Position numbers and translations under genes: made by a program
The notes under the pieces: generated by a model
Databases searched by the model: none
Seen by the model: the letters and a program-made list of their open reading frames with translations, nothing else
What the model was told of the DNA's origin: nothing
Part shown: positions 16-48,124 of the stretch, piece by piece
How the letters are laid out: each line of letters starts with the position of its first letter
How positions within the stretch are numbered: position 1 is the first letter of the stretch
Origin: Desulfuromonadales bacterium
Lineage (GTDB): Bacteria; Desulfobacterota; JAENJC01
Length of the DNA: 64,000 bases
Direction: 5' to 3'
Assembly: GCA_919902985.1 (NCBI GenBank)
Contig: CAKKSC010000007.1
Coordinates: 16,749-80,748 of the forward strand

Positions 16-669
16 ATGAGTGCAGCGGCGCCTATTGCATGTCTCACGCAACGTTACATTTCCGCGAAGAGTGAAGTTGCCCATGACTACACAGCCCCAG
101 TCTCTGCTGTTCTTGTCCCGGCATCCGGCAGGGCAAACCTTCTCATGAAAGAATATAAACGTTTCTTTCAGGCAAGACAGCTCCTTGTTTACTCTTCTTT
201 CTTGTTCCTTATATCCTCTTTTATAGGGGCGGGGTATGCTGCATATTCAACAAGTAAAATCGGTGAAATGAAAAAGCGGCTGATCTCTGCGAGGAAGACC
301 CTTCCCGGCATAGAAGGGATTATAACAGCGTACGACAGCAAAAATGAGGAGTTAAACCGCTATGCCCCTTATCTTGCCTTGATAAATAGTTCTGCTTCAA
401 TTCCTGACCTCCAGGGTTTCCTCTATTTGCTCTCAAAGTTGAATATGGACAGTGTTCAACTTGTCTCCATATCCGTGACACCCGGAGAGCGTGTCCTTCA
501 TTCCGAACTGAAAGGGAGCGTAAAATCAGATAGTTATGGGGATGCTCAAAGGGATTACCAACTCCTTGTTGATCGGATAGGCAAATTGAAGGGGGTTGCT
601 GTTACAGATCATAGTCTCGACTTAATAAAGAAGGAGTTCCAGATAAAGGCGGACTTCAATGATTTATGA
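16..669 (+). CDS. pilus assembly inner-membrane protein, PilN/MshI-like (may extend upstream of window)
   Basis: 217 aa. One central TM segment follows a 50-aa cytoplasmic N-terminus, then a periplasmic domain. First gene of a run: PilO-like, PilP-like, secretin, GspE, GspF. No in-frame stop upstream, so it may be 5'-partial. Confidence 0.4.
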   Translation: MSAAAPIACLTQRYISAKSEVAHDYTAPVSAVLVPASGRANLLMKEYKRFFQARQLLVYSSFLFLISSFIGAGYAAYSTSKIGEMKKRLISARKTLPGIEGIITAYDSKNEELNRYAPYLALINSSASIPDLQGFLYLLSKLNMDSVQLVSISVTPGERVLHSELKGSVKSDSYGDAQRDYQLLVDRIGKLKGVAVTDHSLDLIKKEFQIKADFNDL

Positions 670-1207
670 GAGACTGAAAAAAAATCTGATATACTACCTC
701 CTGACCGGTATTGTCCTGGGGGTTGTAGTTATTGCCGTTGTTTTGATCGGGAAATATGAGGAGAATCTCGCCCAAAGCATTGACAGCTTTGAGAGGATAA
801 GGATGAATTCGATAAGGATGTCAAAGGCTACAGAGGAGAAGGAAAGGATAATCAGGGATATAAAAGAGCTGCTCCCTGCCAGGTATCACTCTACAAGTAA
901 TGAAGAGCTTCTTTTATCAGCGATTGATAGTATAAAGGCCAATATTAGAGGATGTGATATAACGATTGCAAACATTGAAAAAAAGGGAGGAGAGTTAACC
1001 CTTCCGGTCAGCATAAGGATATCTTCTGACAGTTACGGTATGCTGGTCGACAGGGTCGGGTTCCTGCAAGGTCTGACTTACCCTCATTTCAGGGTGGAGA
1101 GTATCCTTATCGAGCGGTCGGAAGAAATGGGAGGCCTCATCTGCAAGATTTCCGGGGCATTTACAATCCCTGCCGAAAAGGTCGAGGGTGAGAGACATAA
1201 TGGATAA
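659..1207 (+). CDS. PilO/MshJ-like pilus assembly protein
   Basis: 182 aa with N-terminal TM helix (LIYYLLTGIVLGVVVIAVVLIG) and periplasmic coiled-coil. Position between PilN-like and PilP-like genes. Confidence 0.4.
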   Translation: MIYERLKKNLIYYLLTGIVLGVVVIAVVLIGKYEENLAQSIDSFERIRMNSIRMSKATEEKERIIRDIKELLPARYHSTSNEELLLSAIDSIKANIRGCDITIANIEKKGGELTLPVSIRISSDSYGMLVDRVGFLQGLTYPHFRVESILIERSEEMGGLICKISGAFTIPAEKVEGERHNG

Positions 1208-1688
1208 TATCTTAAAGATCAAGATTGCCTTTCCTTTTTTGTTTGTTGCTATCGGTTTATTCGCTGTAAGGTTTATTGATTACAAGCTGGTGCTCAACCC
1301 TTCCGAGATGCGGATAGCTGATTTTGTCCAGGAGGAGGTCTTGCTTCAGGCAAAGAGAGATCGCCCCGTTATAGCTGCTAATCTGAAGAGTCCCATAGAA
1401 ATGCCGTCTTCACCAGCGAACGGGTTCCCCCCGGTGCCTTTGGATCAGCTTGTTCCGCAGCAGGGTAAGCCAGAGGCTGATTCCCCTGAATTCAAGGTTA
1501 CGATGATCGTCATTGGCGCTAAAACAAGAATGGCGATTCTAAATGGGTCGGTTGTCATGGAGGGAAGTTTTGTTGATAAGGTGGTTGTGAAAAGGATAGA
1601 AAAAGACAGGGTACTGCTTGCCGAGCATGATGTAAAAAGCGGTAAGCTCAGTCCCGTTTGGTTTTCTCTGGAGGGGACAAAGAAATGA
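1188..1688 (+). CDS. PilP/MshK-like pilus assembly protein
   Basis: 166 aa with N-terminal TM. C-terminal beta-domain (RMAILNGSVVMEGSFVDKVVVKRIEKDRVLL) typical of PilP/GspC-type proteins that contact secretins. Overlaps the secretin start by ATGA. Confidence 0.4.
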   Translation: MRDIMDNILKIKIAFPFLFVAIGLFAVRFIDYKLVLNPSEMRIADFVQEEVLLQAKRDRPVIAANLKSPIEMPSSPANGFPPVPLDQLVPQQGKPEADSPEFKVTMIVIGAKTRMAILNGSVVMEGSFVDKVVVKRIEKDRVLLAEHDVKSGKLSPVWFSLEGTKK

Positions 1689-3292
1689 TAAAGAGAAGAT
1701 GGTGTCTGCTGATACCGATAGTTTTGGCTTGCAGCGCATGTGCCACAAGCAGGAAGGCTGAAGGTCCGACGGCTGCAAAAGAGGAGAAATTAAATACTTC
1801 TGCTGACGGTTCCGGGACGGAACAGAGTGGCAGTGAGAAAGTAGCTGGGGAGGTTGCCGTCAATCCGGCTTTATCGGTGCCGGAGTTCGTCCCTCTTTCG
1901 GAGGACCTCTCGCCCTTAAAGACAAGGATAGTTTCAATCTCTGCACGCAGCACTCCACTAAAGGACGTCCTTTTCGTGGTTTCCGAGGCGACAAGACTCA
2001 ATGTTATCATGGATGCAGGGGTGAACCCTGAGCTTCCAGTGACACTTGTGTTGAATAACGTAAGCGCCGAGGATGCCCTGAATATGGTCTCTTCATCCGC
2101 CGGCTATTTTTATTCGATCAAGGGGAATGTGCTTACAGTGAAGGCGCTGGATACTATGATGTTTGAGTTTGGGCAGCCCTCGGTCATACAGGATTATGCC
2201 GTGAATGTTGGCGGAGATATATTGGGTGGGTCTTCAGGGACTACGGGGGGGACCAGCGGCATTAAGGGAAATGTTTCACAGTCGGTGCAATCTGACAAAG
2301 ACGCTACCAAATTATGGGATTCCATAGAGAAGACCATAGGAAGCCTCGTCGGGGCGACGGTATCTTCTTCAACTTCTGCATCCTCTGCTCCTGGTCTTCA
2401 GGCCGCATCTGCAAAAGCCGAACAGCCTCATATAAATGTCAACAGGATGACCGGGACCATAGTTGTTACAGCTGCAAAGAAAGACCTGGAAAAGGTAGAG
2501 GACTATTTGACACGTCTCAAGAAGATCCTTGGCCGTCAGGTGATTATCGAGGCAAGGGTCGTAGAGGTTCAGTTGTCCGATGGGCTCAAATACGGGATTG
2601 ACTGGACTTCCATCAACGCCCTGAATGTGGCCGGAACTACGAGCGTAGGAACCAGTAACTTCACAAATGTATTAGACAAGAGCCTTCCATCTTTTAACAT
2701 CGGGGTCACAAGGAACAACTTCAATGCGGTATTAACTGCCCTTAATCAACAGGGGAACATAAAGACCCTTTCCAACCCAAGGGTAAATATAATGAATGGT
2801 CAGACGGCCCTGTTGAGTGTTGGCCGCAATACTAATTTTATCTCAAAGGTGGAGACTACGACTACACCAGGGAGTTCAGGAACAGCAGCTACAACAACTT
2901 TTTCAGTCACGACCCAGAACGTCCTGTCAGGAGTCATGATCGGCATGGCCCCCATCGTCAACGAAAACGGAGAGATCTCTATGGCCATTACACCTATAAT
3001 CTCTGACCTTGTGAAGCTGGAGGACAGGACTGTCGGGACTGTTGGACAGAACACAATTCAGATATCCCTGCCCACTGTTGATCTGAGGGAGCTGAATACA
3101 ACAGTTAAGATAAAAGACGGTGAAATGGTCATTATCGGAGGGCTCATACAGAACAGAGACAGGACCCAGGACAATCAGGTCCCGTTTCTGGGACGGATAC
3201 CAATTCTTGGATATCTCTTCAAAAGCAGGGAGGTGATCAAGGAGAAGACAGAGCTTGTAATAATGCTTAAACCAACGGTGGTGGTCTTCTGA
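1685..3292 (+). CDS. secretin (MshL/PilQ/GspD family) lipoprotein
   Basis: Signal peptide with lipobox (VLACSAC). C-terminal secretin signature IIGGLIQNRDRTQDNQVPFLGRIPILGYLFKSR...ELVIMLKPTVV. Start moved to ATG 1685, which overlaps the upstream stop. Confidence 0.85.
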   Translation: MIKRRWCLLIPIVLACSACATSRKAEGPTAAKEEKLNTSADGSGTEQSGSEKVAGEVAVNPALSVPEFVPLSEDLSPLKTRIVSISARSTPLKDVLFVVSEATRLNVIMDAGVNPELPVTLVLNNVSAEDALNMVSSSAGYFYSIKGNVLTVKALDTMMFEFGQPSVIQDYAVNVGGDILGGSSGTTGGTSGIKGNVSQSVQSDKDATKLWDSIEKTIGSLVGATVSSSTSASSAPGLQAASAKAEQPHINVNRMTGTIVVTAAKKDLEKVEDYLTRLKKILGRQVIIEARVVEVQLSDGLKYGIDWTSINALNVAGTTSVGTSNFTNVLDKSLPSFNIGVTRNNFNAVLTALNQQGNIKTLSNPRVNIMNGQTALLSVGRNTNFISKVETTTTPGSSGTAATTTFSVTTQNVLSGVMIGMAPIVNENGEISMAITPIISDLVKLEDRTVGTVGQNTIQISLPTVDLRELNTTVKIKDGEMVIIGGLIQNRDRTQDNQVPFLGRIPILGYLFKSREVIKEKTELVIMLKPTVVVF

Positions 3293-3293
3293 T

Positions 3294-4943
3294 ATGGCGC
3301 TGAGACTTGGAGAGCTGTTAAAGTCAAAGGGTTTTGTATCCGACGCCCAGTTGAACGTGGCAATGGCACAGCAGACCATAACAGGAGACCTCCTGGGCGA
3401 CACGCTTGTAAAGCTTGCCTTTGTCTCTTCGAGGGAAATGGCCCAGGTACTTGCAGAGCAGGCGGGGACGGAGTTCCTCGACCTCTTTGAATACCCGCCA
3501 ACGGACGAGGCCCTGCGCCTTGTCCCCAGGGACATAGCAGAAAAGACAGGGTTCCTGCCACTCAGTGTTGGGGAAAAGGGGATAGCTATTGGGGTTACAA
3601 ACCTGACTAACATTCTTGCCATAGATACTGCTGCCAAGCTCACCGGTAAGCCTCCCAGGGTTTATATGGTGGATTCAGACAGTTTTTATGCAACCCTTGA
3701 GCGGGCCTATTATTTTCTTGAAAATCCAATACATAAGCGTATAGATGCCATAGTCAACGATATAAAAAACGCAGTCGCCCAGACAGCAGCAACCGTCGCG
3801 TCTCTTTCCGAAATGATAATAATGGACGGCATTAAAAGAAATGCGACAGATATCCATATCATGCCGGCGGCAGAGACAGTCCATATCCTTTACAGGATAG
3901 ACGGAGTGCTTCAACATGCCAGATGCCTTCCAAGAAGCACGCAGAATGGAATTGTGTCGAGGATAAAGATCCTTTCCCAGTTAGACATTGCGGAGCAGAG
4001 GCTCCCCCAGGACGGGTCTTTTACTTTTTCCTTCCTTAGCAGAAAGTATGATATGCGTATCTCTACAATCCCCACAATATATGGAGAGAACGTTGTCATC
4101 AGGGTCCTTGGCGGGTCAGGTCTTCTTCTACGCATATCAAGCCTTGGGTTTGATGAGCAGGACACGGAGAGACTGAAACTCCTGTTCTCAAAGCCTTACG
4201 GGATAATCCTGATTACCGGACCCACCGGTAGCGGTAAGACCACTACCCTTTATGCTGCGTTAAGGGAGATTGACCTTCTTGAAAAGAATGTCATAACTGT
4301 TGAAGACCCGGTTGAATACAAGTTGAGCTTTGTGCGGCAAACTGAAGTAAACGAAAAGGCCGGGTACGATTTTGCCCTGGCAGGCAGGAACTTCATGCGT
4401 CAGGACCCGGACGTGATCCTCCTGGGTGAGATAAGGGACGAGGAGACGTCGAAGATTGCCATACGGTCGTCCATTACGGGACATCTGGTCCTCGCTACAC
4501 TCCATACTAACGATGCCGTCACATCAATACCCCGTCTTGTGGACCTTAATGTTGACAGGTATCTCTTATCTGCTTCCATCCTTGCTGTGGTTGCCCAGAG
4601 GCTGGTGCGAAAGATATGCATGAACTGCAAGGCCGAGGTTGATATAGAAAATGGTTATTTAAGGTCTATCGGACTTCCAGACCTGGAGGGAAAGGTAAAG
4701 AAGGCCCACAAAGGCGCTGGCTGTGTCCTGTGTAGCCATACAGGATATGCAGGCAGGATATCTATAGGAGAAATACTCATTGTTAACGATGAAATAAAGG
4801 AACTGATATATTCAGGGGCTTCCGTGCAGGCAATAAAGGAAGCTGCCTCAAGAAACGGCATGAAGACACTCAGGGATGCGGGTATAAGGAAGGCCATTGC
4901 AGGGATTACGACCTTTGAAGATGTGGTAAGGGTGGCAGGCTGA
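3294..4943 (+). CDS. type IV filament assembly ATPase, GspE/MshE/PilB family
   Basis: Walker A LITGPTGSGKTTTLYAAL. Asp/His boxes and tetracysteine motif (CMNCK...CVLCSHTGYAGR). N-terminal GSPII_E_N domain with an RLGELL...motif that resembles the MshEN c-di-GMP-binding motif. Confidence 0.9.
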   Translation: MALRLGELLKSKGFVSDAQLNVAMAQQTITGDLLGDTLVKLAFVSSREMAQVLAEQAGTEFLDLFEYPPTDEALRLVPRDIAEKTGFLPLSVGEKGIAIGVTNLTNILAIDTAAKLTGKPPRVYMVDSDSFYATLERAYYFLENPIHKRIDAIVNDIKNAVAQTAATVASLSEMIIMDGIKRNATDIHIMPAAETVHILYRIDGVLQHARCLPRSTQNGIVSRIKILSQLDIAEQRLPQDGSFTFSFLSRKYDMRISTIPTIYGENVVIRVLGGSGLLLRISSLGFDEQDTERLKLLFSKPYGIILITGPTGSGKTTTLYAALREIDLLEKNVITVEDPVEYKLSFVRQTEVNEKAGYDFALAGRNFMRQDPDVILLGEIRDEETSKIAIRSSITGHLVLATLHTNDAVTSIPRLVDLNVDRYLLSASILAVVAQRLVRKICMNCKAEVDIENGYLRSIGLPDLEGKVKKAHKGAGCVLCSHTGYAGRISIGEILIVNDEIKELIYSGASVQAIKEAASRNGMKTLRDAGIRKAIAGITTFEDVVRVAG

Positions 4944-6154
4944 TGCCTAATTTCTCATTTAAGGCAGTAGATTCTAACGGTGCTCTGGTAAGAGGCTCCA
5001 TAGAGGCCTCTGATCTGGAAGCGGCCGCCGAAACTATTTTTCACGGCGGGCTTAACGTTCTTGAAATAAGAAAAGCGAACGAACTTCTTGCATCGATCAG
5101 AAAAAGATACCTTGCCAGAACCATAAAGAGAAAGGACATTATTGAGTTTGCAAATAACCTTTCCGTGATGTTAAAGACAGGTGTTCCCATTGTTACAGCC
5201 CTTTACGACATAGCTGAAACAACGGACAACGTTTATCTGAGGCGAAACATCCAGAATATAGGCCACCTGGTTGAATACGGCTCAAGATTTTCTGATGCAG
5301 TGTCCCTTCACAAAGATATATTCCCGGAGGTATTTATTCATCTTGTGGTAGTTGGCGAGGAGACTGGGGGACTGGATAAAAGTCTTGCTGATCTGGCAAT
5401 GCATCTGGGAAAGATGGATGATCTGGCCGAAGCGATAAAGAGCGCCTTGATGTATCCGACCTTTGCCATTATTACCACAACCGGGGCCCTTCTTTTCTGG
5501 CTGAAGTTTGTATTGCCGGGTACTATGAGCATGTTTAAGGGCATGGGTGTGGCCCTTCCCCTTCCAACGAGGATACTCCTTCAGATGAGTAATTTTACCG
5601 AATCCTACTGGTATCTTATGCTTATGACTCCATTTGCCCTTTTTACCCTGGTAATGGCGATGAATAGAAGAGCGGAAACCAGATATTACATTGATGCGGC
5701 CAAGATCAAGATGCCAGTAATGAAGCACATCGTTTACAATAAACTCCTGGCCCTGTATGCTGAGCAGATGCGTATACTCAGCGTCGCAGGAATAACTGTC
5801 ACCAGGTCCATGGACATAGTAGCCAGGATTATAGGGAACGAGGTTTTCAGGTTGGCCATAGAGGGGTCTCTGCAGGACATTTCAGCCGGGAGCGGGATAT
5901 CGGAAGCCATGAAAAAGCGGGAGGTCTTCCCAAAGATGATGACCAGGATGGTCTTTATAGGGGAATCCAGTGGAAGCCTTGATGAGCAGTTTGGCTACCT
6001 CTCTGAGTACTACCTGAAGAGGTTGGACGATGTAGCCGAGAGGATTGGCAAAATGATTGAGCCGATAGTCATAGTCGTCATAGGGTTGATGTTTGTATTT
6101 ATGATTATAGGCCTGCTGTTGCCGATATACGACCTGGTAACGAAGATGAAGTAG
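4943..6154 (+). CDS. type IV filament platform protein, GspF/PilC/MshG family
   Basis: 403 aa. Two GspF repeats and three TM segments. Directly follows the ATPase. Confidence 0.85.
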   Translation: MPNFSFKAVDSNGALVRGSIEASDLEAAAETIFHGGLNVLEIRKANELLASIRKRYLARTIKRKDIIEFANNLSVMLKTGVPIVTALYDIAETTDNVYLRRNIQNIGHLVEYGSRFSDAVSLHKDIFPEVFIHLVVVGEETGGLDKSLADLAMHLGKMDDLAEAIKSALMYPTFAIITTTGALLFWLKFVLPGTMSMFKGMGVALPLPTRILLQMSNFTESYWYLMLMTPFALFTLVMAMNRRAETRYYIDAAKIKMPVMKHIVYNKLLALYAEQMRILSVAGITVTRSMDIVARIIGNEVFRLAIEGSLQDISAGSGISEAMKKREVFPKMMTRMVFIGESSGSLDEQFGYLSEYYLKRLDDVAERIGKMIEPIVIVVIGLMFVFMIIGLLLPIYDLVTKMK

Positions 6155-6167
6155 GGCACGATCTTGA

Positions 6168-6252
6168 AAATCCCCCTTAATCCCCCTTTTCCAAAGGGGG
6201 AAAAGTTAGGTCCCCCTCTTTGGCAAAGAGGGGTTAGGGGAGATTTTTGGAG
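6168..6252. repeat. poly-C/poly-G tandem hairpin repeat, copy a
   Basis: CCCCCTTTtccAAAGGGGG followed by CCCCTCTTTggcAAAGAGGGG, then AGGGGAGATTTT. Intergenic between gspF and the exeA-like gene. Confidence 0.7.
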
Positions 6253-6260
6253 TAGACTAA

Positions 6261-7175
6261 ATGAATATTCTCGAATTCTTCGGATTAAAGGAAGATCCGT
6301 TCAGGCTGACGCCGGATCCTGCCTATTTCTTCCCTTCCACAGGGCACAATGAAGCCTTGCAGTCCCTAAACTACCTGGTGGAGCAGAGAGAAGGATTTGG
6401 TCTCGTCTCCGGGGAGCCTGGAACAGGGAAGACCACCCTTATCAGTGTCTTTATGGAAAGCTGGAAGGACAAGGCGGAGATCGCCATGATACTCACTCCT
6501 CGCTTGTCTCCTGAAGAGTTTCTAATGTCTGTCCTGGACGACTTAAATGTAAAGTCTGAAAAAACAAATAAGAACGATATACTGAAGGCCTTCCGGGACT
6601 TCCTTGTGGACAGGTCTCAGGCCGGCCGGCCTGTGATTATCATCGTTGATGAGGCCCAGAACCTTCCTGATGAGACCCTTGAAGAGCTGAGGCTCCTTTC
6701 CAACCTTGAGACCGATAAAAACAAGCTCCTGCAGATAATCCTGATGGGTCAGCCGGAGATTAACGAAAGGCTGCGGCAAAACAATTTCCGCCAGTTGAAC
6801 CAGAGGATCACAGTCAGAATAAGGCTTTACCCTCTTTCCACTGAGGAGGCCCTGGACTACATTAACTACAGGCTTATCAAGGCAGGAAAGGGGTTTTTAA
6901 GGATGGATGAGAAGCTGAAGAAGCCAATCCACAGACATTCAGCGGGAGTCCCAAGGTTAATCAATATCCTTTCATCGCGGGCAATTATGATTGCCTATCT
7001 TGAGGGCAGCAATGTGGTAAGCAAGAAGCACGTTATGTATGCCGTGAGGCATCTCAGGGAAGACCAGGAAATGCCTGAGAGCAGGTTGTCTCCTTACAAT
7101 GCATTGATATATATGATCCCGGCGGCGATGCTTCTTTTAGTCGGGTATTATGCAATAGTTAGATGGAAAGGATAG
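6261..7175 (+). CDS. ExeA/GspA/MshM-like AAA ATPase
   Basis: N-terminal FFGLKEDPFRLTPDPAYFF motif and Walker A GEPGTGKTT, both characteristic of the ExeA/MshM family. 304 aa, with no peptidoglycan-binding C-terminal extension. Confidence 0.7.
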   Translation: MNILEFFGLKEDPFRLTPDPAYFFPSTGHNEALQSLNYLVEQREGFGLVSGEPGTGKTTLISVFMESWKDKAEIAMILTPRLSPEEFLMSVLDDLNVKSEKTNKNDILKAFRDFLVDRSQAGRPVIIIVDEAQNLPDETLEELRLLSNLETDKNKLLQIILMGQPEINERLRQNNFRQLNQRITVRIRLYPLSTEEALDYINYRLIKAGKGFLRMDEKLKKPIHRHSAGVPRLINILSSRAIMIAYLEGSNVVSKKHVMYAVRHLREDQEMPESRLSPYNALIYMIPAAMLLLVGYYAIVRWKG

Positions 7176-7178
7176 TTT

Positions 7179-8093
7179 TTACGGCATCCGTTCTAATCTC
7201 TGCATACCCAGTTCACCGTTTTTATCCCCCAGCTTCCTGAGTCTCGAGAAATAATCCCTTGCCTGATCGTATCTCTTCTCCCTTTCATAAAGAAGGGCAA
7301 TGTTCAGCAGGGCCGACTGGCTGGTTCCGTCAATGGAGATGGCCTTCAGAAGAGAGTTTTCAGCCTCTATGTTTTCCCCTGTTTTAGCGGATACAATCGC
7401 CGAATTGACCAGGGCAGGGATATAATCCGATCTGATATTCAATGAATTCTTCAGATATCCGGCTGCCTCATCATGTCTGCCCATTTTTATCAGCAGGGCA
7501 GCGATCTTGTTTATAATCCTGTAGTTATCGGGCTCTATCTCAAGGGCCTTATTATACTCCGATGCTGCGCTTAACAGGTCATCACCTTTTTCATACCCCA
7601 CAGCCGCGTATATGTGCTGTTCTTTTGCCCCTGGGATGTGTTCCTCCTGAATGGGCACAGGATGTTGCATTTCTACCGGTATTTCCGGCTTTCGGGATTC
7701 AATGGCTTCTGTCGGATGTTTGGCAGGTAGTGCTTCAGGTTTTGTGAGAACGTAATGGGTCTTATTTTTAGCCGGTGCTGCGACAGGTTCTATTTTAGGC
7801 GTAGTTGTTGGAAGGGTGGGCTCCACCGGCATGGCAGTCTGATTGATGCCGTCCGCCCTGGTTTCCTGTGATGCAGTGACACTGTCTTTATTTAAGGCGT
7901 AGCGATCAGTCAGATAAATCGCAGCCAGGCCGAGGCCTGTAAATATTGAAATAATGGTTGCGAAGAGGAGTATCTTTCTGCGCCTGGATTCCTCCTGCTT
8001 TATGGCCGAGACGCTGCTGCTGAGGCCGGGATGAACATCCCTCTTGGGTTGCTGCTGTTTTACCCTGGATAATATGTCGGATAGTATGCTCAT
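7179..8093 (-). CDS. TPR-repeat membrane protein (MshN/GspB-like candidate)
   Basis: N-terminal cytoplasmic segment, one TM, Pro-rich linker, C-terminal TPR repeats. Sits next to the ExeA-like gene, as in MSHA loci (mshM-mshN), but on the opposite strand. Confidence 0.5.
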   Translation of the reverse strand: MSILSDILSRVKQQQPKRDVHPGLSSSVSAIKQEESRRRKILLFATIISIFTGLGLAAIYLTDRYALNKDSVTASQETRADGINQTAMPVEPTLPTTTPKIEPVAAPAKNKTHYVLTKPEALPAKHPTEAIESRKPEIPVEMQHPVPIQEEHIPGAKEQHIYAAVGYEKGDDLLSAASEYNKALEIEPDNYRIINKIAALLIKMGRHDEAAGYLKNSLNIRSDYIPALVNSAIVSAKTGENIEAENSLLKAISIDGTSQSALLNIALLYEREKRYDQARDYFSRLRKLGDKNGELGMQRLERMP

Positions 8094-8096
8094 AAA

Positions 8097-8600
8097 TTAG
8101 TCGTTGCTGTCCTTTACACTGAACGAAAGGGATGATGTTGTCCGCTCAGGATTGGCGGCTATTTTCTTATATCCGGTCTTTTGCAACTTCGCGTATTTTT
8201 TTAGCTGATTATAAACTTTCCACGAGTACTTTGTCCTCTTTCCCTTTGATACCGCGTTGTAGCAACCCACAGCCTCCCATGTGTATCCGTGTTTTTTAAC
8301 ACATGTATTAAGTATCCTGGCTCCGGCGCTGACATTGTAACATGGATCACTGATAAGCCTTTGCCGGTCAAGCCCCAGCGGCCTGATCCAGGACGAGTTT
8401 ATCTGCATAAGCCCGATATCAAAAGAACCATCGTGGTTTTTGTGTATGACTTTTGTGTTGAAATTTGATTCCGTCTCAGCTATACTCTGCAAAAGCTTGG
8501 AATTAATGCCGTAGATGCCTTCCTGCTGGCTGAAACAAAAGGCCTGTGCAATGGAAGGTAAAGTCAGTAAAATAGTGATAGTCAGCTTCAAGGTATCCAT
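8097..8600 (-). CDS. lytic transglycosylase (SLT domain)
   Basis: Signal peptide. Catalytic ETESNF (ExESxF-like) motif and GLMQI motif. Confidence 0.8.
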   Translation of the reverse strand: MDTLKLTITILLTLPSIAQAFCFSQQEGIYGINSKLLQSIAETESNFNTKVIHKNHDGSFDIGLMQINSSWIRPLGLDRQRLISDPCYNVSAGARILNTCVKKHGYTWEAVGCYNAVSKGKRTKYSWKVYNQLKKYAKLQKTGYKKIAANPERTTSSLSFSVKDSND

Positions 8601-8723
8601 TCAGGCCGTAAGTTTAGCAGATAACAGGCAAGCAAATCAAGACAATTGCAAACGGTCTCTCCTCGCCGAATGTTTCTATCGGGGATAGAGTTTTAAGAAA
8701 ACCGGATTTTTGATTGACCCATT

Positions 8724-8739
8724 TGGAATAACAATTGCA
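8724..8739 (+). promoter_or_regulatory. candidate sigma-54 (-24/-12) promoter TGGAAT-N5-TTGCA upstream of the major pilin gene
   Basis: GG and GC dinucleotides are spaced exactly as in the TGGCAC-N5-TTGCW consensus. It lies about 50 nt upstream of ATG 8792. Type IV pilin genes are commonly RpoN-dependent. Confidence 0.4.
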
Positions 8740-8791
8740 TATTTCTTTTGTAGCATAGCAATTAAATTCACATGTCTGAAAGGAGAGTCAA

Positions 8792-9448
8792 ATGCAGAGA
8801 ATCAGGAATCAGAAAGGTTTTACCCTGATCGAGTTGTCGATAGTCCTTGTGATTATCGGGATCATCCTCGGGGCTGTGCTGAAGGGCCAGGAGTTGATAA
8901 ATAACTCCAAGGCAAAGAGGATACAGAGTGATTTGAAAGGCATAGAAGCAATGATATGGACCTATTATGACCGTAAAGGTAGATTCCCTGGTGACTGTAA
9001 CTTAGGTGGGACTTATACCTATATTCCACCACTTTTGGCCATCGGGACCGCAACGCCTCCCAGCAATAATGCCGTTCCAACAGCAGATTATTGTGCTACG
9101 GCTGCAACTCTTGAAACGATAAATACCTCATTTTCGGATATGCGCGTATCTCGACTTTTTTCAACTTCAACTCCAAACATTATTCTTGCAAAGCATCAGC
9201 AGGGTGATTACTTTAAAATAGGAAGTACCGCGCTAATTGCAGGCGTTTCGTATAATATAATAGTGACTTACGGTTTGCCGGCATGGATGGCAAAGATGTT
9301 AGATGTAGCGATTGATGGTGCGGAAGATGGAACTGCCGGCAGAATTAGAAATTATTCCGCCGCTCCTGCGTCAGGTACTGCATGGCCTTTGGACACGCTC
9401 AATGACCAGATAGTCTCAATGTCATATTTCTTTGATAAGAACCCATAG
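8792..9448 (+). CDS. type IV major pilin / GspG-like pseudopilin (MshA-like candidate)
   Basis: Prepilin leader and N-methylation motif KGFTLIELSIVLVIIGIILGAV. 218 aa. Followed by a strong stem-loop. Confidence 0.8.
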   Translation: MQRIRNQKGFTLIELSIVLVIIGIILGAVLKGQELINNSKAKRIQSDLKGIEAMIWTYYDRKGRFPGDCNLGGTYTYIPPLLAIGTATPPSNNAVPTADYCATAATLETINTSFSDMRVSRLFSTSTPNIILAKHQQGDYFKIGSTALIAGVSYNIIVTYGLPAWMAKMLDVAIDGAEDGTAGRIRNYSAAPASGTAWPLDTLNDQIVSMSYFFDKNP

Positions 9449-9466
9449 ATTAATGCGTGACGATGT

Positions 9467-9497
9467 AATAGAGGCAGGCCCACTGCCTGCCTCTATT
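9467..9497 (+). terminator. perfect 12-bp stem-loop after the pilin gene (no T-run)
   Basis: AATAGAGGCAGG-cccactg-CCTGCCTCTATT, 19 nt downstream of the pilin stop. Read directly from the sequence. Confidence 0.5.
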
Positions 9498-9699
9498 ATC
9501 AGGCAATCCCATTGTTGACTTTATTAGTAGCAATAATCTCGATTGTTTCCGGCTATTACCTTTTAATATCTACATCACCTGATTTGCCTCTTGATTACGT
9601 TACCCGCAGGGCGATGTGGGGAATCATCCTGACCCTCATCGGAGGGATAATGGCTATGATCCATATTTTCAGACGTTCAAAATGATGGAAATAGAGGAT

Positions 9700-10911
9700 A
9701 TGATGCGGCTCTCTACACATCGCAAGTCACTCTTCACCAACAAAAATGGTTTTACCCTCATTGAACTGGCAATGGTCATGATAATTGTCGGTCTCCTTCT
9801 TACTATTGGGATGAGCCTGGTTGGCCCGTTGACAAAGAAGGCCAAGCTTATTGAGGCGAGGGAGGCGGTGAAGGCGGCAAAAGAGGCGGTGCTGGGTTTT
9901 ACTGTAAGGAATAATGGTTTATTGCCCCCACTCTTGCCTAATCCGCCTGGGCCGCTTGGAGCTTCTGGTGCTGCAACAATAGATGCTTGGGGGAAAAATC
10001 TCTTTTATATTAGCGAAACTGAGACTACGCAGGGGACAGGTGTTGATGTTTGCGGCCTTACGACCCCGGTGACTCCTATAACTGTGAGGATGTGTCCTAA
10101 TGTCGCCTGTGCAGCACCAACCAGCACTGTCAGTAATGTTGCCTTAGTGATAATAAGTGGTGCGGATAATTTCAATATACAGACAAACATTAGCGGCGCT
10201 AATAATGTTGATATCTACCCGGTTGATACACCAAACATCGACAATTATACGGTTGCTCCAGATCCGAACAGGCTGGAAAACTATGATGATGTTGTTGTAT
10301 ATGTCTCGCTGGATGAGATCAGGACAGCCAGAGGATGTGCGCAACCGTTGGTCATAACATCGCCGACTACGCTACCGCAGGGTGAAGAGGACTCTTTCTA
10401 TTCGTATTCTCTTCAAGCAATTGGTGGAAGACCTCCGTATACTTGGAGTATAGCCACTCAGCCCGGCAGCGGTCTCACTATGAATGCTTCAGGCTTAATA
10501 TCCGGGACTATTAATGTAAACAATGTGGTTCCCAATACCGGTGAGTTAACGGCATGCAATGGGACGATAAATGTGACGAATGCTACCCTCTCTGATTCTG
10601 GAGGTTCTCCTCCAGTTACGTTCACCGGCATAATCCCTGTGAGACCGAAACCTCTGGCAATATCAAATACCGAGATGCCGACGGCAAAGGTAGGAACGCC
10701 TTACACTGTCACCCTTAATGGATCAGCTGGGAATTCCACGACATACACATGGACACTTACCGCTGGGACCCTACCCACCGGCTTGAATTTGGTTTTAGGC
10801 CAGATAACTGGGACTCCATCGGCTGCCGGGGCACCCAGCTTCACAATCCAGTTGGCAGATCCGTGCCTTACAACAATATCAAAGAGTTTTACGATTACTG
10901 TGAATCCATAA
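9700..10911 (+). CDS. pilin-like protein with C-terminal 'putative Ig' (PF05345-like) domains
   Basis: Prepilin N-terminus NGFTLIELAMVMIIVGLLL. C-terminal repeats of G..Y.Y.L.A.GG.PPYTWS...P.GL.L...G.ISGT. Start taken at ATG 9700 because an AGAGGA RBS precedes it. Confidence 0.65.
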   Translation: MMRLSTHRKSLFTNKNGFTLIELAMVMIIVGLLLTIGMSLVGPLTKKAKLIEAREAVKAAKEAVLGFTVRNNGLLPPLLPNPPGPLGASGAATIDAWGKNLFYISETETTQGTGVDVCGLTTPVTPITVRMCPNVACAAPTSTVSNVALVIISGADNFNIQTNISGANNVDIYPVDTPNIDNYTVAPDPNRLENYDDVVVYVSLDEIRTARGCAQPLVITSPTTLPQGEEDSFYSYSLQAIGGRPPYTWSIATQPGSGLTMNASGLISGTINVNNVVPNTGELTACNGTINVTNATLSDSGGSPPVTFTGIIPVRPKPLAISNTEMPTAKVGTPYTVTLNGSAGNSTTYTWTLTAGTLPTGLNLVLGQITGTPSAAGAPSFTIQLADPCLTTISKSFTITVNP

Positions 10912-11025: not shown

Positions 11026-12834
11026 TTATTGTACTGTCCCCACCGCATCGTCCTTGCACTCAGTCAACCCTTCCGTAGGAGTGACCGTCACTGTCAGAGT
11101 AGATGCATCCACCGTGGTATCCGTGTCGGCGTCAGTCAGCACAAATGAGATTACAAGCGGTCCTTTTGAAAGCCTGTCAGTCAATGTATGGCTTGTAGTC
11201 CCGCTCAGTGTCCCGATGGTTGCAGAAATGCTTACAGTTGTACCGGAGGGCAGCCAGTTCATGTTCTCGTCCCCCAGCGTGAATGTGAAGGCCTGGGAAG
11301 AGCCGTTTGTAATCGTAAACGGCGTGGATGGCGAAATATCGCAATACACCGGATTTCCTGAAAAGACAAGCCTTAAGGATACCCAGATAGTTTTGCTCGT
11401 CAGACAATTGGCTACTGAACAGCCCGGGCCGTCCCAGACGCCGTTTGCCCCATCGTAGACGCCATTTCCATTTGCATCTATAAATTCTTCAAACGGGTCC
11501 GTGCTTGCGGAAACCACACCGTTGCAATTTTTGATTGTGCCGCTGTTCCAGCATCCGTCATCGTTTTTGTCAATAAACGGCTCTCCGGTATCGGTAAATT
11601 TTTCTCCTGCATCGTAGATGCCGTTGCCGTTGATGTCTTCAAAACCCTCTTCCCCTTGAACAGTAGCTAAAATCGTTGCCCATCCGTCCCGCGGATTATA
11701 GGTAGTGGCCGATGGTTCACTGAGGTCGTTAAAAAATGCATTTGAGACTGGGTCACCTGCAACAGCCGGCGTCACATTAACCGGGATTGGCCACTGGGTT
11801 CTGAACTTTACGGTTGTAAGTCCCGATTCATCGGTCACATTGCTGCTGTCAATGGCCCCGGCCTCTGCATAAAAAGAGACCGTAGTGCTTTTAAGCACAT
11901 TGTAGTTTCCAAATCTGTCGGCAATAAAAGCGCTGATGTCGGCCGTTTTGTTAGACCAAACCAGGCCCGGAAGATTAACTTTTGTTGTTGCAATATTAAA
12001 GTGGGATGCAGACGGGAGCCCGCCGCCAATGGAGATAGCGGAAGATGATGCTGAAAATACCTGGCTTCCTGATGTGACAGAAGCGGCAATGGTAACAGTT
12101 CCCGCTACCGATCCGCTGTTAAGGGTCGTTGAGGCATATCCAGATACTGTGGATGCACTGGCAGTAGTTGGAGTTGTATCCGGGTCCCCTATGTATTCCC
12201 CTCCGGCAGACGGGAGTTTGCCGCCGCCAGGACCTACCATGGCGAAACTGACTGATGTCCCGTCGATTGCAGGGTTCCCGTTAATGTCTTTCACGAGGAA
12301 TTTTATAGTGGAGGTGGATGCCTGTCCGCTCCCTTTGATCCCTATCTTCTGTGGGGAGGCTGAAACGAACTCGACGTTCCCAGTGGCGGGGGCTGATATG
12401 ATAATTACCGCAGTATTGCTCAAGGAGCCGACCTTGGCCGTTACGGTTACGGTGCCTGGAACGGTGGATGCAGTAAAGGTCACACTGGCAACGCCATTTG
12501 AGGTAATGGCCTGGGAGGTTATAGTCCCCATGGCGCTGCTGCTCAGGGTGAAAGATACCGCCGTCCCGTCGGCGACATTCCCTCCTGTTGAGGTGGTAAC
12601 AGCGGCCTTGATGCTTGATGTCGTGCCGGTAGTTATAGTGGAAGGGGTTGCAGTCACCTCCATATTGGCGGCGGTTGCCGCCCCGCTTCCTGAGCCCGTT
12701 CCAATGCTTGCGGCCACTCCGCCATTGTTCTCCGGCAGACCGCTCCCGCCGCATGAATAAAGCATCGACAAAAAGACAATCGCCAATAGGGTACTTGCGG
12801 TACGACTAAGTTTCCATGACTCGTTACTCATCAC
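11026..12834 (-). CDS. large surface lipoprotein with bacterial Ig-like (Big) domains and Asp-rich Ca-binding-like repeats
   Basis: Signal peptide plus Cys. Several Big-like repeats (GTVTVTAKVGS; IKFLVKDINGNPAIDGTSVSF). Paralog of 56012..57781. Confidence 0.6.
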   Translation of the reverse strand: MMSNESWKLSRTASTLLAIVFLSMLYSCGGSGLPENNGGVAASIGTGSGSGAATAANMEVTATPSTITTGTTSSIKAAVTTSTGGNVADGTAVSFTLSSSAMGTITSQAITSNGVASVTFTASTVPGTVTVTAKVGSLSNTAVIIISAPATGNVEFVSASPQKIGIKGSGQASTSTIKFLVKDINGNPAIDGTSVSFAMVGPGGGKLPSAGGEYIGDPDTTPTTASASTVSGYASTTLNSGSVAGTVTIAASVTSGSQVFSASSSAISIGGGLPSASHFNIATTKVNLPGLVWSNKTADISAFIADRFGNYNVLKSTTVSFYAEAGAIDSSNVTDESGLTTVKFRTQWPIPVNVTPAVAGDPVSNAFFNDLSEPSATTYNPRDGWATILATVQGEEGFEDINGNGIYDAGEKFTDTGEPFIDKNDDGCWNSGTIKNCNGVVSASTDPFEEFIDANGNGVYDGANGVWDGPGCSVANCLTSKTIWVSLRLVFSGNPVYCDISPSTPFTITNGSSQAFTFTLGDENMNWLPSGTTVSISATIGTLSGTTSHTLTDRLSKGPLVISFVLTDADTDTTVDASTLTVTVTPTEGLTECKDDAVGTVQ

Positions 12835-12844
12835 AAACCCCTGT

Positions 12845-13288
12845 CTAAGAGACGGTTAATGTCGCAGATGCAAAAGCGGAACCTGAGCGGATTTCGAGAT
12901 TGCTCGTAAATGAAGTTCCGCCGCCGGAAAGATAGTCAACCCGCAGGTAATAGACCCCATCGGCATTTGTCGTAGCAATAAATGGCGAGTTTTTTGGTGT
13001 AGAGCCGTCGTAAAGCTGGGCATAGCCCAAAGGATCGGGAATTGCCACAGGCAGGGAGATTGAGACCTCGGCATTCTGAACAGGATTGTCTTTTTCATCC
13101 TTAATGGTGATCGTAAAATATTGAGTATGGGTGGCAGAGGGGTTAGTGTCGCTGACGGACATGCTAAGTGGATTAATAGAAACAACACTTCCAGTTGGCG
13201 CGGTGATTTTATCGCCTGAGCACCCGGCAATCGCCAGGATCAGAAATATTGTAACAAGAAGCTGATACCACGAGTATTCTTTTCTCAT
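12845..13288 (-). CDS. small Ig-like lipoprotein (paralog of 55491..55943)
   Basis: Lipobox LAIAGC. 147 aa. Clearly similar to the 150-aa protein at 55491 (e.g. IRSGSAFASATLTVS versus VRSGAAFISISITLS at the C-termini). Lies upstream of the large Ig-like gene in the same operon orientation. Confidence 0.5.
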   Translation of the reverse strand: MRKEYSWYQLLVTIFLILAIAGCSGDKITAPTGSVVSINPLSMSVSDTNPSATHTQYFTITIKDEKDNPVQNAEVSISLPVAIPDPLGYAQLYDGSTPKNSPFIATTNADGVYYLRVDYLSGGGTSFTSNLEIRSGSAFASATLTVS

Positions 13289-35439: not shown

Positions 35440-35760
35440 ATGATTACCGCTGAACTTCATAAGAGAGTGGAAAGGATTGCCCATAATGCAGGGATGGAAG
35501 AAGATCTTTTTGTCTTGAAGGCTTCCGTATCCTATCTGACAGAAAAAAAGAGGGCTTATCTGAAAGAGAGATTTGAAATACTCTCCAGGTATGGATCTAT
35601 CTCTGTCGCCGACCTGCAGGCGAAGATTAAGAATGGAATGGTTCCCGAACATCCAGCATGGGAAGACATGATCGAGGTGGAAAATGTTGAAGCTGAGGTC
35701 AGGGAGATGGATGATGCCATTAGAGATTTACAAAAAACTGCGGGGGCTGGCCCTCACTGA
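35440..35760 (+). CDS. hypothetical small acidic protein (candidate antitoxin partner)
   Basis: 106 aa. Overlaps the downstream TumE-like gene. No domain recognised. Confidence 0.4.
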   Translation: MITAELHKRVERIAHNAGMEEDLFVLKASVSYLTEKKRAYLKERFEILSRYGSISVADLQAKIKNGMVPEHPAWEDMIEVENVEAEVREMDDAIRDLQKTAGAGPH

Positions 35761-36097
35761 GTTCAGTGACATTGTTGAAGATAGCGACTTTATAAGATCC
35801 GAGACGGATAGGCCGCGAAAATTGCGTATTTACCTGATTGATGGGACATTTCTGGATATATGGTATTCACAACAAGAACAACATTATTCCTATCACTGGG
35901 AGCGGAAGGATATAAACGGTACGCTTTATAGGCATGACAATGCTCCACACCACCGATGGGCTAACATAAAAACATTTCCTAAACATTTTCATAACGGTTC
36001 CGATGAAAACGTTATTGAAAGCAAACTTCCTGAAGATCCTAAAAAAGCCCTCTCTATCTTTCTATCATTCTGCCGCGAAAAATTATCCGAATTATAA
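35684..36097 (+). CDS. TumE/DUF6516-like toxin-antitoxin family protein (candidate toxin)
   Basis: YRHDNAPHH...FPKHFH segment resembles the R-Y-D-N...H-H-x-H core I recall for TumE-family proteins. Start could be ATG 35711 or 35714. Confidence 0.45.
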   Translation: MLKLRSGRWMMPLEIYKKLRGLALTEFSDIVEDSDFIRSETDRPRKLRIYLIDGTFLDIWYSQQEQHYSYHWERKDINGTLYRHDNAPHHRWANIKTFPKHFHNGSDENVIESKLPEDPKKALSIFLSFCREKLSEL

Positions 36098-36347: not shown

Positions 36348-36833
36348 ATGAAATCTGAAGATGGTTTTACCCTGATTGAACTTCTCATAACGGTTGCCCT
36401 CATAGGCATTCTCGGCGCCATTGCGGTTATGAGCACTCCCCAGATGCTTAATAACTACAGGGTAAAGGGTGCTGCAAGGCAAGTATATTCCGATATGCAA
36501 ATGGCGAGATTAAGGGCGATAAAAGAGGGGAAGCGGTTTGCAGTGGAGTTTACAAGTGCCACTGCCTATTGTGTTAAAAGCGAGGTTAACACTGTTACAA
36601 CCCTTCCAGATGATTTCACCAATGGATGCACAACTGCTAATGATACTATTTTAAAGAATATAGATATTGCAGCAGATTATTCAGGGGTAACATCAAGTTG
36701 TACAAATACCAGAGTGGTATTCAACCCGAATGGAACTGCGGGTGGTTGCGGTAGTAGTTTTACTATATCTAAGGATCTCAAGACTCAAACAATTTCAATC
36801 AATACTGGTACAGGAAATATAAGAATGAATTAG
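36348..36833 (+). CDS. minor pilin, GspH/FimT family
   Basis: Prepilin N-terminus DGFTLIELLITVALIGILGAIAV. 161 aa. Confidence 0.7.
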   Translation: MKSEDGFTLIELLITVALIGILGAIAVMSTPQMLNNYRVKGAARQVYSDMQMARLRAIKEGKRFAVEFTSATAYCVKSEVNTVTTLPDDFTNGCTTANDTILKNIDIAADYSGVTSSCTNTRVVFNPNGTAGGCGSSFTISKDLKTQTISINTGTGNIRMN

Positions 36834-36853
36834 TTTACAAGACAGGGGCTGCT

Positions 36854-37303
36854 ATGAATATTAAAAATCAAAAAGGCTTTACCCTTATTGAGGTACTTAT
36901 ATCCGTATTCCTTCTTTCGGTTGGCCTTCTGGCTGTAGCTGCCATGCAGACAACCGCCATGACGGGGAGCACCTCCTCTAATAACACCACCCTTAGCTCT
37001 CAGCTGGCCGAGGAGATGGTGGACAGGATAAGGGTGAACGGGGGAAGTGCGCCGAATATTTACGGCACTCTTGACACAGCCAACTGCACTGGGCTGGGGC
37101 TGGTTGACCCTGCTCTTGGGGACTGCACCCAGTGGAGGGACAGGTTGCAGAGCTCAGGACTTCCGGGAGTAACCGGGACTGTGACGGTAGTGCCGGACTC
37201 CCCGATTTCAAAGACTGCAACGGTCACCGTAACGGTTACCTGGGGCCTTACTGGAACCAGGAGCACGAGGCTCATTACTATAATAGAGACATGGCTGGCG
37301 TAG
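36854..37303 (+). CDS. pilV: type IV pilus minor pilin PilV
   Basis: KGFTLIEVLISVFLLSVGLLAVAAMQ. Confidence 0.75.
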   Translation: MNIKNQKGFTLIEVLISVFLLSVGLLAVAAMQTTAMTGSTSSNNTTLSSQLAEEMVDRIRVNGGSAPNIYGTLDTANCTGLGLVDPALGDCTQWRDRLQSSGLPGVTGTVTVVPDSPISKTATVTVTVTWGLTGTRSTRLITIIETWLA

Positions 37304-37310
37304 GAGAATA

Positions 37311-37372
37311 TAAAATGCAAAATGCAAAATTAAAAACTAAAATTTGCAATTTACAATTTGCATTTGATCAAC
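37311..37372. repeat. AT-rich heptamer-array inverted pair that encodes the PilW leader
   Basis: (ATGCAAA)(ATGCAAA)(ATTAAAA)(ACTAAAA)(TTTGCAA)(TTTACAA)(TTTGCAT). Translated as MQNAKLKTKICNLQFAFDQ. Confidence 0.6.
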
Positions 37373-38364: not shown

Positions 38365-38365
38365 T

Positions 38366-38456
38366 GTATCCCATCCCCACCTTAATCCTCCCCTTGAAGG
38401 GGAGGAAATAAGCATTCTCCCTCTCCCTCAGGGAGAGGGTTGGGGTGAGGGTGGAT
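38366..38456. repeat. poly-C/poly-G tandem hairpin repeat, copy e
   Basis: The first 40 nt match copy c with 2 mismatches. Two hairpins. Lies between pilW and pilX. Confidence 0.7.
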
Positions 38457-38472
38457 TTAGAGAGGTATTGAA

Positions 38473-38985
38473 ATGAAGACATTGAATAATGAAAGAGGAG
38501 CGGTCCTTATAACAACACTCCTGTTGATTGTGATAATTACCCTCATCGGGCTTATTGCAATAAACACAGCGACAGTAGACATACAGATATCTGGGCAGAC
38601 CAAGAGATCCTCAATGGTCTTTGGGGGTGCAGAAGCAGGGGTTGATCTTGCAATACCTGTGATCGAGGGCACCCTTGGCAGCGGGGCTCTTGTACCCCCC
38701 GCACCGACCGGGATCATTACAAATCTTGATACCGGAGCTTCCCCAAATTTACTCGGTGAGATAACCGCCAGTTCGGACAATAACGCAGATACCGCCTCAG
38801 GCACGCCTGATATAACAGCTGGACTTAACGGAGTAAATGTTCAGATTGACATAGACAGGTTATACTCCTATCAGATTCCGGGCGGGGCCATAGAGTTTGC
38901 TGCGGGTTATGAAGGAGTTGGCGCAGGGGCAGCAGGCGGTGGGACCGGTGTTCTTTACAGAATTGACAGTCAGGGGACTTTATAG
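38473..38985 (+). CDS. pilX: type IV pilus minor pilin PilX
   Basis: PilX_N-like N-terminus ERGAVLITTLLLIVIITLIGLIAINTATVD. Confidence 0.65.
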   Translation: MKTLNNERGAVLITTLLLIVIITLIGLIAINTATVDIQISGQTKRSSMVFGGAEAGVDLAIPVIEGTLGSGALVPPAPTGIITNLDTGASPNLLGEITASSDNNADTASGTPDITAGLNGVNVQIDIDRLYSYQIPGGAIEFAAGYEGVGAGAAGGGTGVLYRIDSQGTL

Positions 38986-47509: not shown

Positions 47510-47524
47510 GTAAAGAGGTATACA

Positions 47525-48115: not shown

Positions 48116-48124
48116 TTTAAAAAA

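Follow-up and report, generated by a model that had tools for sequence, protein, structure and literature searches.

Ig-like lipoprotein pairs linked to type IVa pilus genes in a Desulfuromonadales bacterium: candidate surface accessories of the pilus machine

Introduction

The presence of two similar pairs of lipoprotein genes within one short stretch of a bacterial genome, each pair standing near pilus genes, raises the question of what these proteins are and whether their position reflects a function shared with pili. The stretch considered here comprises 64,000 nucleotides (nt) from a Desulfuromonadales bacterium (GenBank assembly GCA_919902985.1, contig CAKKSC010000007.1, positions 16,749 to 80,748 of the forward strand) and is referred to as the window. 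In both pairs, termed A and B, the gene of a small immunoglobulin (Ig)-like lipoprotein is followed by that of a large one. An earlier reading of the letters alone (the original prediction) had proposed exported adhesins or S-layer-like components, possibly substrates of an adjacent secretin system. To our knowledge, detailed dissection of type IV pilus machines has been confined almost entirely to Proteobacteria, Myxococcus, Thermus, and cyanobacteria. Nitrospirota and Desulfobacterota, two phyla in which the present genes are linked to pilMNOPQ, are important for the cycling of nitrogen, sulfur, manganese, and subsurface carbon.

The reading favoured here, to which a probability of about 0.5 is given, is that the large protein is a pilus-operon-linked Ig-rod lipoprotein of the outer membrane or cell surface whose distal module binds Ca2+, and that it serves as a variable, adhesin-like accessory produced along with the pilus machine. 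In loci that have it, the small Ig lipoprotein would be the partner of the large one. All functional statements are drawn from sequence, structure models, and gene order.

Two paralogous pairs of predicted lipoproteins

The four genes are listed below, with coordinates counted from the first nucleotide of the window.

11026-12834, minus strand: large lipoprotein A, open reading frame (ORF) of 602 amino acids (aa)
12845-13288, minus strand: small lipoprotein A, ORF of 147 aa, paralog of small lipoprotein B
55491-55943, plus strand: small lipoprotein B, ORF of 150 aa with a signal peptide, lipobox Cys23, a short tether, and an Ig-like beta-sandwich at about residues 30-150
56012-57781, plus strand: large lipoprotein B, ORF of 589 aa, the pilQ-linked copy of ancestral type

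The proposal of two paralogous pairs with the same internal order is borne out by alignment. With compositional adjustment, large A and large B are identical at 349 of 598 positions (58%) over their full length (E=0), and the small proteins share 35% identity, also over the full length (E 2e-22). Order and spacing are kept as well, the small gene preceding the large one with an intergenic gap of 10 nt in pair A and 68 nt in pair B. Since the similarity of the large proteins runs from end to end, it is not confined to low-complexity stretches rich in T, S, and G, and a compositional artefact is ruled out as its source.

A hydrophobic N-terminal segment followed by a lipobox is found in all four proteins (IAG-C, LWG-C, YS-C, and SA-C). 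In Pfam, large A exceeds the cut-offs of both Big_1 (PF02369; 42.0 versus 34.9) and Invasin_D3 (PF09134; 34.8 versus 33), whereas large B exceeds that of Invasin_D3 (33.2 versus 33) and stays below that of Big_1 (32.4 versus 34.9). The Ig-type Pfam matches of small A and small B are all sub-threshold, and no NCBIfam model matches any of the four proteins. Together with the Ig-like folds seen in AlphaFold2 (AF2) models, these scores around the cut-offs agree with the Ig-like or Big domains that had been claimed at the outset, and the lipoboxes agree with the claimed lipoprotein signal peptides.

Long ORFs that overlap the large genes (11936-12760, plus strand; 12281-12754, minus strand; 55999-56403, minus strand) have low-complexity translations rich in P, V, A, and T. 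Most likely they reflect the skewed composition of Ig-repeat coding sequence and are not genes.

A large family with a variable stalk and a conserved distal module

Homologs of the large protein number in the hundreds, mainly in metagenome-assembled genomes (MAGs) of Nitrospirota and "Deltaproteobacteria", and are labelled only "hypothetical" or "adhesin/invasin". A profile search returned 7,637 clusters (50% identity) at E<=1e-3 and at least 2,054 at E<=1e-30, the longest members reaching 7,473 aa. Within the loci described in the next section, the length of the large protein ranges from 540 to 3,525 aa. A module of about 530 aa, usually situated at the C-terminal end of the protein, is conserved and recognisable by the motifs ADRFGNYNVL, HPRDGW, and GEExFxDxNGNGxYD. 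The length variation is due to N-terminal insertions of 0 to about 2,880 residues, nearly all of which are extra Ig domains between the anchor and the module. By analogy, this succession of anchor, variable stalk, and conserved distal module resembles the layout typical of rod-like surface adhesins. He_PIG domains are also inserted N-terminally in many of the large homologs.

With a signal peptide ending in [LVI][ASTVI][GAS]C as the criterion, a strict lipobox is found in 55 of 66 large and 24 of 36 small homologs. Among the N-termini listed, most of the others show a lipobox-like ...GC or ...NC; what is left are ORFs that are masked or cut short at the N-terminus. Two family alignments (A2 and A3) have an invariant lipobox Cys and a third (A1) a nearly invariant one, and this Cys is retained by the giant family members. 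Both the large and the small proteins are predicted lipoproteins. The residue at position +2 in the 55 large homologs is G in 27 cases, S in 20, and D in one. In Escherichia coli, G or S at this position stands for sorting to the outer membrane, a rule that may not hold in these phyla.

The AF2 model of large A has a mean predicted local distance difference test score (pLDDT) of 82.6 and gives the following layout, based on the confidence of each segment and on DSSP.

Residues 1-24: signal peptide, the lipobox Cys being Cys28
Residues 29-51: disordered tether of about 25 residues rich in G, S, and T (AF2)
Residues 55-147: Ig domain 1 (AF2/DSSP)
Residues 151-263: Ig domain 2 (AF2/DSSP)
Residues 267-345: Ig domain 3 (AF2/DSSP)
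Residues 346-380: low-confidence linker (AF2)
Residues 381-480: acidic, loop-rich stretch, confidently modelled (AF2)
Residues 481-601: terminal beta-sandwich (AF2)

Small B is modelled as a single nine-strand beta-sandwich on a short tether (pLDDT 87.2). The acidic stretch, about 85 residues that are acidic and rich in loops, holds three EF-hand/dockerin-like D-x-[DN]-x-[DNS]-G loops in each large protein of the window, located at positions 400, 422, and 453 of large A (DINGNGIYD, DKNDDG, and DANGNGVYD) and at 399, 421, and 438 of large B. Its acidic residues are invariant in the family alignment, and at least one acidic loop is present in 61 of the 64 homologs in which the anchoring motif was found, compared with 0.03 in each shuffled segment. 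The conservation and enrichment of these loops point to Ca2+ binding as a predicted property of the C-terminal module; no Pfam Ca2+-binding family matches the large proteins, and no Pfam model covers their C-terminal 220 residues or so.

Foldseek searches of the PDB with large A and small B gave generic Ig or macroglobulin (MG) arrays only among the matches listed (top 50 per model), including invasin (1cwv), FdeC (4e9l), SbsB/SbsC, alpha-2-macroglobulin (5a42 and 4rtd), and C3. The idea of S-layer-like components gained nothing beyond such generic Ig-fold matches, and sequence searches of the PDB with the window proteins retrieved no relatives. An N-terminal 12-stranded beta-barrel translocator of the inverse autotransporter kind has no Pfam match, and the AF2 model shows only the signal peptide, the tether, and Ig domains at the N-terminus.

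A conserved Cys-containing tail (C...GT[VI]Q) had also been described as a feature to be examined for a sorting signal. The strand G-[TS]-[IV]-[DQN] at the C-terminus is indeed widespread in the family, but the Cys is limited to one subclade. No transmembrane helix is found there, and the proteins end in a beta-strand, without the hydrophobic helix or other hallmarks of PEP-CTERM, LPXTG, MYXO-CTERM, or type IX secretion system (T9SS) C-terminal domain (CTD) signals. In homologs carrying extra C-terminal He_PIG- or FN3-like domains, as judged by sequence motifs, the same strand is internal. Owing to this internal position and to the clade-specific Cys, the tail was rejected as a sorting signal and is taken as the last beta-strand of the final domain.

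Linkage to the pilMNOPQ operon across phyla

Pair B stands at the end of the following series of genes.

36348-38985, plus strand: four minor pilins, with prepilin N-termini in their translations, preceding the PilY1 homolog
39336-44537, plus strand: PilY1 homolog of 1,733 aa (Pfam T4P_PilY1)
44640-45383, plus strand: He_PIG lipoprotein of 247 aa with lipobox ITLG-C and a C-terminal He_PIG Ig domain, between PilY1 and pilM
45873-51640, plus strand: pilM-pilN-pilO-pilP-pilQ (Pfam PilM_2, PilN, PilO, PilP, and Secretin with AMIN), the type IVa pilus alignment complex and secretin
51695-55450, plus strand: aroC-aroK-aroB-aroD (Pfam Chorismate_synt, ORFs), between pilQ and pair B

The distance from aroD to the small gene of pair B is 40 nt. 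Since the minor pilins, PilY1, the He_PIG lipoprotein, pilMNOPQ, the aro genes, and pair B are contiguous, the region from 36 to 58 kb is a single type IVa pilus supercluster. The original prediction, in which pair A abutted pilins of the mannose-sensitive haemagglutinin (MSHA) type and pair B the aro operon, was correct as to adjacency but missed the main context, namely the pilMNOPQ genes that precede aro. Promoter and terminator scans around both pairs gave counts within shuffle expectation.

For comparison across relatives, one genome per species of the Genome Taxonomy Database (GTDB) was scanned, which yielded 72 loci (designated by L numbers). These were annotated by BLASTP with the window proteins and by a hidden Markov model (HMM) of the small family, and the counts cover the 54 loci in which 3 kb or more of DNA is available upstream. 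The relatives belong to at least three bacterial phyla and include Nitrospirota (Thermodesulfovibrionia, Nitrospiria, and Manganitrophaceae), Desulfobacterota (among them Desulfonema magnum and Desulfosudis oleivorans, which are cultured carriers of the family), and others (Nitrospinae, Muproteobacteria, and Acidiferrobacterales). A pilQ gene on the same strand lies upstream of the large gene in 47 of the 54 loci, which come from Nitrospirota, Desulfobacterota, and some Proteobacteria, directly in 37 and with aro genes between in 10, and in two further loci (L010 and L019) pilMNOPQ is found at most 4 kb away in divergent orientation. Furthermore, all five long metagenomic contigs examined carry an ORF of about 150 aa without Pfam match and then a large homolog, both immediately 3' of pilMNOPQ. 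Adjacency to and co-orientation with pilMNOPQ are thus kept across taxa, as would be expected of an accessory gene of the type IVa pilus cluster. The suggested link to neighbouring pilus and secretin genes holds on this side, and far more strongly than the letters alone could show, recurring in the 47 species-level loci, whereas on the MSHA side it was not seen in the examined relatives of pair A.

The small gene was detected in 31 of the 54 loci and lies between pilQ and the large gene in Nitrospirota-type loci. It is absent from the Desulfobacterota loci, where aro genes are lacking and the large gene begins at a distance of 60-190 nt from pilQ. A Rosetta-stone test for fusion of the two proteins in Desulfobacterota gave no evidence of it: the extra N-terminal domain aligns to Ig domain 1 of the large protein, and the small-family HMM gives only weak and generic matches to Desulfobacterota large proteins. 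The aro genes vary by lineage, standing before the pair, after the pair, or outside the locus, and the insertion of aroCKBD between pilQ and the pair position recurs in L009 and L084. Since the aro genes shift among lineages while the pair stays by the pil genes, the pair is tied to the pil genes no less stably than aro, whose own linkage to pil is well known.

In L045, from a MAG labelled Proteobacteria, a second Ig-repeat ORF of 675 aa (7379-9406) lies between pilQ and the large-family gene and may be a tandem paralog.

Turnover at the pair B position in a close relative

A reverse synteny test, in which the PilQ of the window served as the query against metagenomes, found five close relatives, one of which (L084) was informative. 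Its PilQ is 84% identical to that of the window, and the arrangement of PilY1 (49% identical and in the same place), He_PIG, pilMNOPQ, aroCKBD, tetratricopeptide repeat (TPR), and Roadblock genes is the same. The large gene was not found at the pair B position of this locus. A 266-aa lipoprotein occupies the place. It joins a small-family domain at the N-terminus (hhalign probability 94.9%, E 4e-8) to a He_PIG-type Ig domain, which was called from a 44% BLASTP match to the window pilin at 9616-10911 and from a PYTW-type repeat. The site behind the pil-aro operon is accordingly a variable Ig-lipoprotein locus, and the content of L084 suggests that the pair B position turns over by insertion and replacement. 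Because the large gene is missing at this position in L084, the large protein is an accessory and not a universal core part of the machine.

The same interval of L084 (18396-20796) also contains a 183-aa ORF, by eye Uma2/DUF820 endonuclease-like, and two small ORFs resembling a toxin-antitoxin pair.

Ancestry of the two pairs

In a neighbour-joining (NJ) tree built on the conserved module of the large proteins, pilQ-linked copies are present in every major clade, which argues that the pilQ linkage is ancestral. Large B clusters with L009, the layout of which is identical (pilQ-aroCKBD-small-large), while large A groups with the non-pilQ copies L010 and L011 as sister to the pair B lineage. From this placement, pair B is the pilQ-linked copy of ancestral type and pair A a dispersed paralog that has come to stand beside the MSHA-type pilus cluster. 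The latter, identified with Pfam and NCBIfam, contains the following genes.

16-10911, mixed strands: MSHA-type pilus cluster, convergent with pair A
1658-3292: secretin
3294-4943: MshE-type ATPase with MshEN domain
4943-6154: platform protein
6261-7175: AAA_22 protein
7179-8093, minus strand: TPR protein
8097-8600, minus strand: SLT transglycosylase
8792-9448 and 9616-10911: pilins

Pair A is convergent with the last of these pilins. Conservation of this MSHA adjacency in relatives was looked for and not found, the relatives examined (L081, L082, and L083) being orphans. In Desulfonema magnum, a distant homolog of 1,624 aa is followed after a gap of 33 nt by genes of the MshM/MshE/MshG type, namely AAA_22, an MshE-type ATPase, and a T2SSF platform gene, with a sigma-54 activator; here the family stands beside an MshE-type pilus cluster in a second, independent case. 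The MSHA-type cluster is genomic context, and a functional link between it and pair A would be conjectural.

Proposed function and alternatives

If the proteins are pilus-linked Ig-rod accessories, both would be targeted to the outer membrane. The working end would be the conserved C-terminal module, binding Ca2+ and being held off the membrane by the Ig stalk, most plausibly on the cell surface because arrays of thousands of residues would not fit the periplasm. There it would mediate attachment or contact with other cells or matrix, in concert with pilus extension and retraction, with the small lipoprotein as the large protein's partner, in the role of co-anchor or assembly helper.

Several points weigh against this proposal. 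The synteny sample was conditioned on the presence of the large gene, and the relatives found by the reverse test are too few for a rate. Neighbourhoods of pilMNOPQ keep functionally unrelated genes such as aroK/aroB, and synteny alone is therefore no proof of shared function. Additionally, the small gene is missing from the Desulfobacterota loci, so the two proteins need not always cooperate; the orphan paralogs mentioned above have no pilus genes nearby; and the state of L084 speaks against a universal requirement of the large protein for the pilus machine. We know of no route that carries a lipoprotein with G or S at +2 to the cell surface in these phyla. Moreover, surface exposure, Ca2+ binding, adhesion, and co-transcription are all deductions from sequence and models.

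A different role, which we consider improbable, is that of a secretin accessory, with the small protein, the large protein, or both being outer-membrane lipoproteins that face the periplasm and act on PilQ by piloting, stabilising, ringing, or plugging it, in the manner of PilF/PilW/Tgl, TsaP, or SlkA/SlkB elsewhere. Pilotins are typically small lipoproteins encoded beside their secretin. Only short gaps separate the pair from pilQ, which stands immediately 5' of it, the small protein (150 aa) is of a size expected for a pilotin, and G or S at +2 of both lipoproteins would direct them to the outer membrane by the E. coli rule. No TPR lipoprotein pilotin was seen in the window, the TPR proteins at 7179-8093 and 58131-59177 being without lipoboxes, and paired secretin-binding proteins are known in Pseudomonas (PMC13392014). 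However, a length that varies from 540 to more than 3,500 aa through stalk insertions is unlike a fixed machine part, and neither model matches the fold or sequence of a pilotin, TsaP, or Slk protein. The same pil-aro operon occurs in L084 without the large gene in its position, the small gene is wanting in Desulfobacterota, and orphan copies are located far from any secretin gene. Even less probable is the export of the large lipoprotein through the pilus secretin, after which it would be kept lipid-anchored on the outer leaflet in a PulA/type II-like fashion. Some bacteria do secrete proteins through type IV pilus systems, and the secretin substrate PulA is itself a lipoprotein; such export would offer a route to the surface, where the giant members are implied to reside, and the family is genetically linked to secretin operons of two pilus types. 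On the other side, PulA avoids Lol sorting by means of Asp at +2, whereas 47 of the 55 large homologs have G or S there and one has D. A secretion signal could not be recognised, type II-like substrates are not usually rods of up to thousands of residues, and the orphan copies would have to be accounted for.

The gene order might also be merely inherited, as for aroK/aroB, the proteins being ordinary Ig-repeat lipoprotein adhesins without functional tie to pili. The aro genes reside in the same neighbourhood without a known functional link, the orphan paralogs and the loss in L084 indicate that the genes are separable from the pil operon, and the existing annotation goes no further than "hypothetical" or "adhesin/invasin". 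We nevertheless regard this explanation as unlikely, since the adjacency is maintained in different phyla even though the aro genes stand now before it, now after it, and now outside the locus, the Desulfobacterota large gene following closely upon pilQ with no aro genes at all. Furthermore, juxtapositions with MshE-type clusters have occurred independently in the window and in Desulfonema, and gene order is rarely conserved this deeply without co-regulation. A bolder extension of the pilus link is tentative at best: the family could be an unrecognised type IVa pilus component of Nitrospirota and Desulfobacterota, in which the Ca2+-binding module of the lipid-anchored Ig rod docks on PilQ or on the fibre, for example after export through PilQ or as an extracellular or periplasmic collar. 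The small protein would then be a dedicated pilotin-like partner, and a duplicate like pair A would work with a second pilus system, for instance the MSHA-type one.

Comparison with known systems

Like invasin, intimin, and FdeC, which have a functional distal end, the large proteins form a tandem Ig rod of the Big_1/Invasin_D3 type (Pfam; Foldseek matches 1cwv and 4e9l), and their distal end is likewise predicted to be functional. They differ in having a lipobox anchor in place of an N-terminal beta-barrel or LysM domain, in lacking a C-type-lectin tip, and in a distal module that consists of the acidic loop region and a beta-sandwich without Pfam model. In rod-like repeat "stalk" surface proteins known as Periscope Proteins, the functional end is held nearer to or farther from the anchor according to the number of repeats, and the class is defined by near-identical tandem repeats that vary within populations (PMC9704523). 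The family described here has a comparable variable Ig-type stalk, with 0 to about 2,880 extra residues, but its variation, followed here by length, is between species. Bacterial alpha-2-macroglobulin lipoproteins, which were among the top Foldseek matches (5a42 and 4rtd), are likewise lipoproteins made of MG/Ig-like beta-sandwich arrays; the template modelling (TM) scores are at most 0.27, however, and the present family has neither thioester nor bait region and about a third of the length.

Pilotins and other secretin-associated proteins (PilF/PilW/Tgl, PulS/AspS, MxiM/ExsB, TsaP, and SlkA/SlkB) are similar in being small envelope proteins, mostly lipoproteins, that are near or act on a secretin, SlkA and SlkB acting as a pair on PilQ (PMC13392014). 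In contrast, the length variability and patchy presence of the present family are unfit for an obligatory assembly factor. For the pilotin families, no Pfam or NCBIfam match and no PDB sequence relative was found, and the Foldseek matches listed (top 50 each) were only generic Ig-like ones. PilY1 resembles the large proteins in its size, its genetic tie to type IV pili, and its EF-hand-like acidic loops; it has a Ca2+ site. However, PilY1 is not a lipoprotein but a beta-propeller protein whose gene accompanies those of the minor pilins, and the window has its own homolog at 39336-44537. PulA shares the linkage of a lipoprotein to a secretin system and a possible surface location, but it is an enzyme with Asp at +2, whereas the present family has G or S and no catalytic domain.

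A full-text literature search found no description of the family or of Ig-like lipoproteins in pilMNOPQ operons. While the domains themselves are ordinary, the apparent novelty lies in the family as a unit, defined by a motif-bearing conserved module and by the regularity with which it accompanies pilMNOPQ in Nitrospirota and Desulfobacterota. Such an association in a large family points to a lineage-specific addition to pilus biology, which could mean an adhesin deployed together with pili or a new partner of the secretin. In addition, the motif-based definition of the family offers a sharper annotation than the labels now in use.

Further genes of the pilus clusters

Additional features were noted in the genes around the two pairs. 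The pilin at 9616-10911 (plus strand) is unusually long (431 aa), its prepilin N-terminus being followed by C-terminal He_PIG Ig domains. In the PilY1 homolog, the T4P_PilY1 beta-propeller is located at residues 1283-1532 or thereabouts, and a MAM/InhA-like domain is found at the N-terminus. The He_PIG lipoprotein at 44640-45383 is a further Ig-like lipoprotein inside the pilus cluster and is kept in L084. Just 5' of the minor pilin genes, two small overlapping ORFs of 106 and 137 aa lie at 35440-36097 (plus strand). Directly 3' of pair B, at 58131-59536 (plus strand), the gene of a cytoplasmic TPR protein (58131-59177) overlaps by 1 nt with that of a 119-aa Roadblock/LC7-like protein, the Pfam match of which (E 1.4e-3) is below the cut-off. 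The same duo of TPR and Roadblock/LC7-like genes occurs 3' of the locus in L071 (2803-4121) and L084 (21121-22472), and could represent an MglB-like pair of polarity or motility regulators.

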